From: an archaeon
GTDB lineage: Archaea; Iainarchaeota; Iainarchaeia; Iainarchaeales; JANQMZ01
Reading direction: 5' to 3'
DNA: 32,000 nt
NCBI GenBank assembly: GCA_028279805.1
Contig: JANQMZ010000007.1
Location: forward strand, 390,001-422,000
Below are positions 9,107-14,681 of this stretch, one piece after another. The notes below the pieces were generated by a model, which saw only the letters and a program-made list of their open reading frames with translations, was not told the DNA's origin and did no database searches. A program made the translations under genes and the position numbers. Positions within the stretch are counted from its first letter, which is position 1; the number at the start of each line of letters is the position of its first letter.

Positions 9107-9799
9107 ATGTATGCTAGGGGAAAAAATGGTTGGTTTTCAATTAAAACAGCAAACAATCTTATAGAAAAACCAACTGAAGAATTAGCCGAATTTATTGGAA
9201 TTATGCTTGGCGATGGAAACATTCACGAAATAGATGGCAAAGGAATTTACCAAGTAAGGATAGCAGGACATAAAATTGATGATGCAGCATATTTTGATTA
9301 TTTAGAAAAATTGTTTATCAATCTTTTTGGAAAAAAACCTTCTTTTTATAAGTCAAAAAATAGAAAAACAATCTATCTTACGAAACAAAGCAAAGATGTT
9401 GTACACACTCTAAAACATTTTGGATTAATTCCAGGAAATAAAACAAAAAACAATTGTGGAATCCCAAGTTGGATTTTTTCCAATAATAAATTTTTGAAAG
9501 CTTGTGTAAAAGGACTTATAGATACTGACGGAAGTGTTTATCCCAAAACAAAAAAACACAAAACGCCTACAATTTACTTTACAAGCGCAATTCCAGAACT
9601 AAGACAAGATTTTAAAAAAGCTCTTCAGAACTTAAATTATAAATGCTCAAAATGGGTTAAAAAATCAGGAAAGGCAGCACAAGATTGTACAATTGGAGAT
9701 AGAGCAGAAGTTTTGAGGTACTACAGAGAAATAGGTTTTTCAAATCCAAAACATGAAAAAAGATTCAAAAAATTTTGGAAACTCGCCCTTGTAGTGTAG
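9107..9799 (+). CDS. Free-standing double-motif LAGLIDADG homing endonuclease
   Basis: Two LAGLIDADG motifs, FIGIMLGDGNIH and KGLIDTDGSVYP, about 105 residues apart in a basic 230-aa protein. The last 15 nt overlap tRNA-Glu. Confidence 0.85.
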   Translation: MYARGKNGWFSIKTANNLIEKPTEELAEFIGIMLGDGNIHEIDGKGIYQVRIAGHKIDDAAYFDYLEKLFINLFGKKPSFYKSKNRKTIYLTKQSKDVVHTLKHFGLIPGNKTKNNCGIPSWIFSNNKFLKACVKGLIDTDGSVYPKTKKHKTPTIYFTSAIPELRQDFKKALQNLNYKCSKWVKKSGKAAQDCTIGDRAEVLRYYREIGFSNPKHEKRFKKFWKLALVV

Positions 9800-9859
9800 C
9801 CTGGTCAAGCACACAGGGTTCTCAACCCTGTAACCCGGGTTCAAATCCCGGCAAGGGCA
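9785..9859 (+). tRNA. tRNA-Glu (anticodon CTC)
   Basis: 75-nt cloverleaf: acceptor GCCCTTG/CAAGGGC, D arm GTGT-AGCCTGGTCAA-GCAC, anticodon arm CAGGG-TTCTCAA-CCCTG, T arm CCGGG-TTCAAAT-CCCGG. Confidence 0.9.
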
Positions 9860-10187: not shown

Positions 10188-10195
10188 TATTTAAA
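10188..10195 (+). promoter_or_regulatory. TATA box (TATTTAAA) driving the hairpin module plus tRNA-Thr(UGU) transcript
   Basis: The box is centred about 26 nt upstream of 10218-10220, the first bases of the GC-rich module. Confidence 0.5.
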
Positions 10196-10219
10196 CAATT
10201 ACAAAAACAATTAATAGAA

Positions 10220-10325
10220 ACGCGGTGTTCCGCGTGAGAACATCCGCCTTCGGCAGGATGTCCGAAGCAAAGCTTCGGAAGTGCCACTGAAAGTGGCACG
10301 CGGAGTAACCGTACGCAATCGGTTC
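10220..10325 (+). ncRNA. GC-rich multi-hairpin module, copy 2 (apparent 5' leader of tRNA-Thr-UGU)
   Basis: Hairpins: ACGCGG/CCGCGT 10220-10235, ATCCGCC/GGC(A)GGAT 10242-10259, TCCGAAGC/GCTTCGGA 10261-10279, GTGCCACT/AGTGGCAC 10281-10299, AACCG/CGGTT 10307-10324. Alternative closing helix: CCGCGTG 10230-10236 with CACGCGG 10297-10303. Confidence 0.55.
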
Positions 10326-10398
10326 GCCTCGGTAGCTCAGTGGCTAGAGCACTTGCCTTGTAAGCAGGGGGTCGCGAGTTCGAATCTCGCTCGAGGCT
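10326..10398 (+). tRNA. tRNA-Thr (anticodon TGT)
   Basis: 73-nt cloverleaf: acceptor GCCTCGG/TCGAGGC (identical to the GGT isoacceptor), anticodon arm CTTGC-CTTGTAA-GCAGG, T arm GCGAG-TTCGAAT-CTCGC. A T-run follows. Confidence 0.9.
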
Positions 10399-10451
10399 TT
10401 TTTATCAAAAAAGTTTTAAAGGAAAAAAAGAATTAAGTTAAAGGTGATTTA

Positions 10452-14425: not shown

Positions 14426-14608
14426 CCCGCCTTAGCATAGTAGCCAATGCGCTCGGCTGTAGACTCCCGCCTGACCGCGGGAAAAGGTCGTGTCACTTTC
14501 GGTGACACTGGCGCTCTTTGAAGCGCAAAACCGGTTAAATCCGTTTTAGGATTGAAACAGCGCATGGCAGTAACCGAGAGATCCCCGGTGCAAGTCCGGG
14601 AGGCGGGA
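14426..14608 (+). tRNA. tRNA-Tyr (anticodon GTA) interrupted by a 110-nt intron at the canonical 37/38 site
   Basis: Exon 1 is 14426-14462: CCCGCCT-TA-GCAT-AGTAGCCA-ATGC-G-CTCGG-CTGTAG. Exon 2 is 14573-14608: A-CCGAG-AGATC-CCCGG-TGCAAGT-CCGGG-AGGCGGG-A. CTGT (32-35) can pair with GCAG 14567-14570, leaving 3-nt bulges AG|A and TA|A, as expected for a bulge-helix-bulge (BHB) site. Confidence 0.85.
14463..14572 (+). ncRNA. tRNA-Tyr intron = GC-rich multi-hairpin module, copy 3
   Basis: Hairpins: TCCCGC/GCGGGA 14465-14482, GTGTCAC/GTGACAC 14490-14508, GCGCT/AGCGC 14511-14526. It shares strings with copies 1 and 2. Confidence 0.8.
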
Positions 14609-14681
14609 CTTAGCCTATTATTTGGAGATGGCGATACATTTAAATAAACGACCGACTAATCAGTCTATTGGTGATACTGAA

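Follow-up and report, generated by a model that had tools for sequence, protein, structure and literature searches.

Hairpin repeat units ahead of an archaeal tRNA-Thr(UGU) gene, one of which shows insertion-type dynamics in related genomes

We analysed a stretch of 32,000 nucleotides (nt) from an archaeon of the order Iainarchaeales, which is further referred to as the window. It covers positions 390001–422000 of contig C9 (JANQMZ010000007.1) of the source genome (label G000), which is 876 kb long and contains about 33% G+C. The subject of the study is a GC-rich insert of 105 bases at positions 10220–10324 of the window, which forms five hairpins (H1 to H5) between the predicted transcription start and the first nucleotide (+1) of a tRNA-Thr(UGU) gene. 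This insert is called copy 2; copies 1 and 3 are related elements elsewhere in the window. Labels of the form Gnnn denote sampled genomes of the order, and labels of the form Lnnn denote individual loci examined. The features of the tRNA-Thr(UGU) unit, in window coordinates, are listed below.

10188–10195, + strand: TATA-like box TATTTAAA of the tRNA-Thr(UGU) unit, seen in the sequence, with a predicted start near 10218–10220
10220–10235, + strand: H1, a 6-bp hairpin ACGCGG/CCGCGT with the loop TGTT, the 5' end of unit A (sequence and folding)
10238–10241, + strand: GAAC spacer after H1, invariant in all 10 aligned unit-A copies
10242–10259, + strand: H2, hairpin ATCCGCC-TTC-GGC(A)GGAT, which behaves like a swappable cassette (comparison with the tRNA-Ser(UGA) leader)
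10261–10279, + strand: H3, hairpin TCCGAAGC-AAA-GCTTCGGA, an identical 19-mer being present in the tRNA-Ser(UGA) leader
10281–10299, + strand: H4, hairpin GTGCCAC-TGAAA-GTGGCAC, the first hairpin of unit B (covariation)
10300–10306, + strand: linker GCGGAGT, of which GCGGA is nearly invariant in the unit-B alignment
10307–10324, + strand: H5, a variable 5-bp stem AACCG/CGGTT with the conserved 8-nt loop TACGCAAT, the 3' end of unit B (covariation)
10326–10398, + strand: complete tRNA-Thr(UGU) gene that encodes no CCA and has a T-run behind it at 10399–10403 (ARAGORN; Rfam tRNA, 67.4 bits)

Copy 2 is composed of two juxtaposed repeat units, unit A (H1-GAAC-H2-H3) and unit B (H4-GCGGAGT-H5). The end of H5 is located one nucleotide, a single C, ahead of tRNA-Thr +1. 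The absence of encoded CCA and a T-run directly 3' are features of the G000 tRNA genes. An earlier description of the window made from its sequence (the original prediction) had reported the TATA-like box, H1 with its CCGCGT(G) strand reaching 10236, the heptamer CACGCGG at 10297–10303, and the hairpins at 10242–10259 and 10261–10279, all of which were verified in the sequence. The third hairpin of that description also exists, but it spans 10281–10299 and is slightly longer than the 10282–10296 given there. The element had further been called mosaic or partially palindromic. It is mosaic, as two separately occurring units are joined in it, whereas its palindromic character amounts to hairpin symmetry only.

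The first 74 nt of copy 2 are 81% identical to the tRNA-Ser(UGA) leader. H1 and H3 are identical in the two leaders and H2 is wholly different; hence, whole hairpins are swapped as cassettes. A search of Rfam at gathering and E-value thresholds yielded tRNA matches only and no other family. The identification of the hairpins as C/D-box, H/ACA or kink-turn elements was dropped upon inspection by eye, given the absence of the box motifs.

The geometry of the promoters was considered next to that of other tRNA genes. At 18 tRNA genes of G000 that have no GC-rich leaders or flanks, the distance from the end of the TTTAAA box to tRNA +1 is 22–42 nt. In the tRNA-Thr(UGU) unit, 24 nt lie between the end of this box and the start of the GC-rich module. 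The distances for four tRNA genes preceded by such modules are the following.

Thr(UGU): 130 nt from box end to tRNA +1 (24 nt plus a 106-nt module)
Asp: 89 nt (26 nt plus a 63-nt module)
Arg(CCU): 86 nt (25 nt plus a 61-nt module)
Glu(UUC): 119 nt (26 nt plus a 93-nt module)

Since the box-to-tRNA distance equals the normal spacing plus the length of the module, the modules lie between the start and the tRNA and are expected to be transcribed as leaders. Judging by this geometry, the copy-2 module is very probably the whole 5' leader of tRNA-Thr(UGU). The start predicted at the first bases of the module (10218–10220) is backed by the box-to-module spacing, which equals the normal box-to-tRNA spacing. 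The genome contains a gene for archaeal RNase P RNA (RF00373 match, 118.6 bits, C9:222213–222525), which makes the release of a leader of about 106 nt from the tRNA-Thr(UGU) precursor plausible. We thus infer that transcription would proceed from 10218 and that RNase P would release the leader.

Two other elements of the window are related to copy 2.

2780–2894, − strand: copy 1, an inverted five-hairpin architecture that forms the tRNA-Arg(GCG) leader (inverted alignment, z 9.6)
14459–14572, − strand: copy 3, an inverted partial unit in the intron of tRNA-Tyr(GUA) (inverted alignment, z 6.1)

Copies 1 and 2 are collinear hairpin by hairpin, in reversed order. When copy 1 is read on the + strand, its H1 is at 2879–2894 with the loop AACA, and GTTC is at 2873–2876; at its far end, a hairpin with the loop CTGACT replaces H5. 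Copy 1 is also the best match of the unit-A model R2, on the − strand. Copy 3 contains a hairpin with the loop CTGACC, an H4-like hairpin and an H3-like hairpin. A direct-orientation match to copies 1 and 3 had been claimed previously for the 3' half of copy 2. Direct alignments are at the level of noise (z 1.8 and −0.5, respectively), the short direct matches between the copies being due to the near-palindromic hairpins.

The tRNA gene interrupted by copy 3 (window positions 14426–14609) is an unannotated tRNA-Tyr(GUA) with a 110-nt intron, and it is the sole tRNA-Tyr of G000. It was missed by ARAGORN with default options and at the Rfam gathering threshold, and is reported as tRNA-Asn(gtt) i(36,110) when ARAGORN is set to allow introns. 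By eye, an intron at 37/38 yields the anticodon GTA, with a CTGT/GCAG central helix and 3-nt bulges. A stand-alone paralogue of the 5' part of copy 1 was observed outside the window, at C9:331380–331560. The AT-rich run cacaaattcttggaca is part of it, a GATATAAAAAA box immediately precedes it, and there is a T-run near its end. It may be an independent small transcript.

Approximately 15 of the 38 tRNA genes of G000 are flanked or interrupted by related hairpin blocks in both orientations. Unit A (H1 with the loop TGTT, NN, GAAC, H2, H3) is represented in this genome by 10–13 copies, located mostly directly after tRNA 3' ends. At tRNA-Trp, Ala(UGC), Ile(UAU), Arg(UCU) and Ser(GGA), it begins 2–4 nt after the tRNA 3' end. 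In the leaders of Thr(UGU) and Ser(UGA) it comes first, at Arg(GCG) it is inverted and lies against the 5' end, and two copies are off tRNAs. Unit B (an optional GCGAGC-N4-GCGAGC, H4, GCGGAGT, H5) has 11 copies. Copies at Thr(UGU), Glu(UUC), Asp and Ala(UGC) adjoin the 5' end of the tRNA, inverted ones are found against the Ser(UGA) 3' end as well as upstream of Thr(CGU) and Ile(UAU), and one copy is in a gene 3' region. The orientation of further copies, the comparison of which had been suggested earlier, is therefore mixed, hairpin units occurring in both orientations genome-wide. The tRNA-Ala gene of the rRNA operon has unit B on one side and unit A on the other, both in spacer that is discarded and outside the 23S processing stem. 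Unit A as a part of this stem was ruled out, the stem being located further downstream. Two TATA-like boxes, TATTTAAAAC and TTTAAATG, are present at C9:218120–218140 between the 16S 3' end and unit B before tRNA-Ala; they lie about 25–34 nt ahead of unit B and may form an internal promoter.

To describe the distribution of unit B in the order, its covariance model was run on 151 sampled genomes. Unit B was found in 46 of them, belonging to many families, with 1–33 copies per genome (33 in G024, 22 in G011, 19 in G069, 15 in G005 and 11 in G000). The covariance model did not find it in three well-sampled families (0 of 16, 0 of 16 and 0 of 13 genomes). Unit A is mostly confined to G000 and has weak relatives, e.g. 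in G011, again directly after tRNA 3' ends. A metagenome scan with the unit-B pattern gave one match, a relative of the tRNA-Ser(GCU) locus of G011, in which the promoter and the tRNA-proximal unit B are kept and the distal leader is different. A scan with the tRNA-Thr(UGU) pattern gave no match, and no close relative of G000 was found by which copy 2 could be dated. A loose pattern scan of genome contigs yielded mostly chance bacterial matches, the only real ones being L035 and L063, both archaeal.

The flanks and the proximity to tRNA genes were analysed for 96 unit-B copies, a copy being considered near a tRNA if it was located in or at most 120 nt from a tRNA gene. This holds for 39 copies (41%), 22 in the sense and 17 in the antisense orientation, arranged as follows.

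H5 end abuts the tRNA 5' end, sense: 16 copies
H5 end abuts the tRNA 3' end, antisense: 9 copies
Unit B inside a tRNA intron: 2 sense and 6 antisense copies
5' side of unit B faces the tRNA: 6 copies

The introns are those called by ARAGORN in eight tRNA genes: Tyr (2), Arg (3), Ala, Ser and Met. Within the introns, the H5 end is at a splice boundary (L159, L201, L214).

Target duplications were identified as direct repeats between the sequence after H5 and the upstream flank, accepted if they scored above the permuted null at its 99th percentile. Such repeats flank 18 of the 96 copies, compared with about one expected. In 14 of these 18 cases the downstream repeat starts exactly at the base after H5 (offset 0), and in several copies the upstream repeat ends exactly at the model start. 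The duplications are 10–27 nt long, and by eye some reach 35–40 nt. The duplicated targets include tRNA 3' ends (L008, L187, L209), the last codons of protein genes (L184, L181, L183, L193, L221), a ribosome-binding site with the start codon (L211), and, in two families, the final 17 nt of a C/D-type small RNA (L005 in G016:C1 and L011 in G011:C2). An orthologue of the L184 site was not found in G069. Within a single genus, four species have no insert at the 3' end of an orthologous gene where six others have one. The filled species carry unit B or other hairpin units, always with a duplicated gene end; in one of them there are two inserts, and the gene end is present three times. In G024, the H4 loop of one unit B holds a second, complete unit B (L188, contig C71), and three copies (L194–196) are 94–95% identical over about 108–127 nt, are identical across the 63-nt unit B, and contain no open reading frame (ORF). 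Hence, unit B in the relatives of G000 shows insertion-type dynamics with a precise 3' terminus.

Several observations were made at individual loci. At L005 and L011, unit B stands between the C/D-box-like small RNA (GATGATGA ... CTGA, ends GGC/GCC) and a downstream repeat of its last 17 nt. At one position the two genomes have different bases (T or G), and both copies of a given genome have the same base there. At L226–L231 (genus g30), the 3' end of a zinc-ribbon-like gene, GAYATGGGCGCATAA, was struck repeatedly by different hairpin units across species, with as many as three gene-end copies as the outcome, and looks like a hot spot or an insertion-tolerant site. At L250 (G011:C23), a 38-nt hairpin insert GGGGAC...GTCCCC just after tRNA-Gln has a 50-nt flanking direct repeat that includes part of unit A, which suggests that other small hairpin inserts also cause duplications in these genomes. 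In G011, loci L205, L206, L208 and L210–L212 form a unit-B subfamily with the loop TACGAAAT, preceded by ATAATTATTAC. These copies end right before GGTGA-N5-8-ATG of protein genes, that is, they constitute their 5' untranslated region, and may supply promoters.

With moderate confidence, we interpret the co-transcribed leader as a set of juxtaposed insertion-element units, with unit B as a discrete insertion of about 60 nt, and not as an RNA switch. Unit B would then be a discrete, non-coding element of about 60 nt whose ends are precise, present order-wide, and unit A, a repeat unit largely specific to the G000 lineage. In related genomes, unit B would have landed either way round at tRNA 5' and 3' boundaries, in tRNA introns, in rRNA spacers and at gene ends, usually duplicating 10–40 nt of the target, and the copies would persist where the added RNA does no harm or is thrown away. 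For copy 2, this means a leader that is passively transcribed along with the tRNA and would be removed by RNase P. By analogy with the relatives, the copies in G000 would have arisen by the same insertion process.

A number of results weigh against this interpretation. Neither copy 2 nor any other G000 copy has a detectable target duplication around it. All five hairpins of copy 2 are intact in a genome with 33% G+C, and different families share the loop TACGCAAT and the linker GCGGA. These features imply selection or a recognising factor, which could equally serve a function at the RNA level. The abutment to tRNA ends (0–3 nt) is tighter than random insertion followed by selection predicts. 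Finally, no mobilising enzyme was found. TnpB (PF07282) and the Y1 transposase (PF01797) are absent from G000, Cas1 is absent in five element-rich genomes, and the reverse transcriptase (RT) domain RVT_1 is absent from G000, G024, G011 and G069. Unit B is carried by 6 of 19 RT-positive genomes, compared with 46 of 151 overall, which means no association. The family richest in RT has no unit B. The absence of RT from element-rich genomes argues against canonical target-primed retroposition, and TnpB with omega-RNA, the Y1 transposase and Cas1 (casposons) were ruled out as movers by their absence in the genomes searched. Only a Xer-like integrase is common, with one match above the cut-off per genome, or a few weak ones.

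A more specific proposal, which we regard as possible but put forward tentatively, is that units A and B represent an undescribed class of structure-defined insertion elements of about 60 nt, with a fixed terminal hairpin, target duplications of variable length and no recognisable transposase or RT. They would home to splice sites and to the exact boundaries of stable-RNA genes, and archaeal tRNAs would owe leaders, trailers and introns to them. In that case copy 2 would be composite and full-length, and could even be a source copy, as the ends of its RNA would be precisely set by the transcription start and RNase P.

The helices of both units were examined for covariation in an alignment of 88 distinct unit-B copies from many genomes and an alignment of 10 unit-A copies from G000. 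In unit B, 97.6% of cells are paired, 299 cells are changed on both sides, and G-U pairs occupy only about 10 of 1024 cells. Changes on both sides occur at all seven pairs of H4 and at four of the five pairs of H5, where 98.3% of cells are paired. Sliding the partner columns lowers the pairing to approximately 31–45%; hence, the unit-B helices are real and maintained. In unit A, 99.2% of cells are paired, 9 of 12 pairs change on both sides, and there is one G-U cell; in H1 alone, all cells are paired (100%) and four of six pairs change on both sides. The 108-nt stretch of copy 2 folds at −50.7 kcal/mol, whereas shuffled sequences fold at −32.3 ± 3.4 kcal/mol (z −5.4), and its reverse complement folds equally well (z −5.6). 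The scarcity of wobble pairs and the equal folding of both strands indicate that complementarity is kept on both strands. Such strand-symmetric helices fit an element that forms hairpins in either orientation, or as DNA, better than they fit selection for RNA made from one strand.

The same observations bear on the possibility that the units are palindromic hairpin or cruciform sites in DNA, bound or nicked by a structure-specific protein or serving as insulators at highly transcribed RNA genes, with their spread being secondary. Watson-Crick stems on both strands (about 1% G-U), strand-symmetric folding and the use of either orientation are consistent with it. However, the H5 stem varies freely while the loop is conserved, which is the opposite of a duplex operator; no partner protein was identified; and the target duplications and empty sites indicate insertion dynamics rather than fixed regulatory sites. 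We consider such DNA sites rather improbable.

The tight placement of the units, in turn, would be explained if they were cis-acting modules of RNA processing or stability, which are recognised by a factor or block an exonuclease, and in this way influence where or how RNase P or RNase Z cleaves, or keep the precursor from decay. The end of H5 is within 3 nt of a tRNA end in 25 of the 96 copies, H1 follows five tRNA 3' ends at 2–4 nt, the order in the rRNA operon is B-tRNA-A, and the conserved loop and linker as well as the intact hairpins of an AT-rich genome agree with such a role. Still, the orientation is near random (22 sense and 17 antisense copies, those in introns being mostly antisense), so that the conserved loop is often transcribed as its complement. 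Moreover, 57 of the 96 copies are away from any tRNA, about 23 of the 38 tRNAs of G000 have no units, the copy number ranges from 0 to 33 between related genomes, and G-U pairs are nearly absent, which is unusual for helices selected as RNA. On balance, a processing role appears unlikely, though it deserves more attention than the DNA-level alternative.

The original prediction was that the leader contains a switch, in which CCGCGTG pairs either with ACGCGG locally or with CACGCGG at long range, and that these mutually exclusive pairings regulate the fate of the leader or the maturation of the tRNA. Both pairings are indeed present and, by comparison of the fold energies, are nearly isoenergetic. 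The constrained fold with five local hairpins has −49.9 kcal/mol and that with the 7-bp long-range closure, −49.2 kcal/mol. They are thus less than 1 kcal/mol apart, and the ensemble is divided between them. The unconstrained minimum (−50.7 kcal/mol) is a long-range closure slightly different from the one described earlier. A switch role finds no such agreement in other copies. Among the 22 B units with C[AG]CGCGGA (the CACGCGGA-type linker), the long-range heptamer partner is present upstream in one, copy 2 itself. Other H1 stems (GCCCGA, GCTCGG, AGCCGG) are unable to pair with the invariant linker, the helices backed by compensatory changes are H1 and H5, and no riboswitch of Rfam matches. 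We therefore regard the switch as the least probable of the explanations considered.

The complementarity of 17 nt between copy 2 and positions 2873–2895, also noted earlier, is exact (AACGCGGTGTTCCGCGT, then GAAC). The duplex of 17+4 nt between the Arg and Thr leaders is predicted by co-folding to have −39.4 kcal/mol, compared with −19.5 kcal/mol for two separate hairpins, and co-folding of the whole leaders gains about 22 kcal/mol. These energies would allow the released leaders to act in trans: the Arg and Thr leaders, or any pair of a forward and an inverted unit, would hybridise via hairpins or kissing loops and co-regulate maturation. On the other hand, complementarity arises automatically for inverted copies of one repeat, the pairing partners are not conserved across genomes, and both segments are held in stable intramolecular hairpins; action in trans seems very improbable to us. 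The comparison with the split tRNAs of Nanoarchaeum fails, as both tRNA-Arg(GCG) and tRNA-Thr(UGU) are complete genes, and the tRNA set of G000 is complete without separately encoded halves. The complementarity between the leaders follows from the insertion of the same H1 hairpin in opposite orientations. If the leader consists of juxtaposed insertion-element units, both the alternative pairing and the complementarity to the Arg leader are by-products of repeated, inverted hairpins.

We compared the units with several known systems. The closest case in archaea is that of the transposed bulge-helix-bulge tRNA introns of Thermoproteales (Fujishima et al. 2010, as summarised in PMC4090602). As in these introns, near-identical short non-coding sequences are found in unrelated tRNA genes, the spread is probably at the DNA level, and intron and leader sequences are linked. 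In contrast to them, units A and B also occur as 5' leaders, 3' trailers, in the rRNA spacer and at the ends of protein genes, in both orientations, are flanked by target duplications and have a fixed hairpin at the 3' terminus. Copy 2 is itself no intron: it has no splice motif at its borders and no exon on the 5' side. A bulge-helix-loop at the junction of H5 and tRNA +1 was ruled out by inspection, as the flanks cannot form an outer helix. Integrative elements of archaea are known to leave duplications of tRNA ends (att sites in tRNA genes; PMC4090602). Partial tRNA ends beside an intact tRNA at L008, L187 and L209 resemble such duplications, but the inserts here are 60–110 nt long with no integrase or cargo, and their targets include protein genes and a C/D-type small RNA.

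MITEs (miniature inverted-repeat transposable elements), the Correia elements of Neisseria and the bacterial repetitive extragenic palindromic (REP) and REPIN sequences are miniature non-autonomous repeats that are co-transcribed with genes. Similarly, the units studied here are small, non-coding, multi-copy, hairpin-forming and intergenic, show insertion polymorphism, vary in copy number between relatives, and are co-transcribed and then removed or tolerated. They differ from all these repeats in the strong preference for exact tRNA and intron boundaries. Unlike MITEs, a survey of which in prokaryotes is given in PMC11602168, unit B (from CGAGC...GCGAGC to H5) has no terminal inverted repeats, and its duplications are not of fixed length but vary from 10 to about 40 nt. 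Unlike REP sequences associated with RAYT transposases and the hairpins derived from IS200/IS605, the units are found in a genome (G000) without the Y1 (HUH) transposase or TnpB, and unit B has duplications. Short interspersed element (SINE)-like retroposons insert by target-primed reverse transcription. With them, the units share a fixed 3' end with a conserved terminal hairpin, a variable 5' extent, concatenated units, target duplications of variable length and the association with tRNA genes. They are distinguished by the lack of a canonical RT in element-rich genomes, with none associated over the 151 genomes, and by the lack of an A-rich tail.

The leader is relevant to the origin of leaders, trailers and introns in archaeal tRNA genes, since hairpin repeat units of this kind are found beside and within tRNA genes across an order of tiny DPANN archaea. 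With regard to the gain of introns by archaeal tRNAs, a review of 2014 called the mechanism of tRNA intron transposition unknown (PMC4090602), and a survey of Asgard tRNA introns of 2026 found no general route of their arrival (bioRxiv 10.64898/2026.10.13.758758). The family of units A and B, of which no description was found in the searchable literature, is a concrete and traceable case, where one unit of about 60 nt is seen as a leader, a trailer, an intron, an rRNA spacer insertion and a gene-end insertion. The datable filled and empty sites, together with the target duplications and the precise terminus, make the step of arrival testable. For annotation, the preferred reading means that long GC-rich tRNA leaders in DPANN genomes would be repeat insertions, and not riboswitches or remnants of split tRNAs.

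Two further observations concern tRNA genes of G000. In the window, an ORF at 9107–9799 (230 aa) overlaps the first 15 nt of tRNA-Glu(CUC), located at 9785–9859. At C9:834471–834544 there is a tRNA-Ile(UAU) besides two CAU tRNAs, which is an uncommon mode of AUA decoding.

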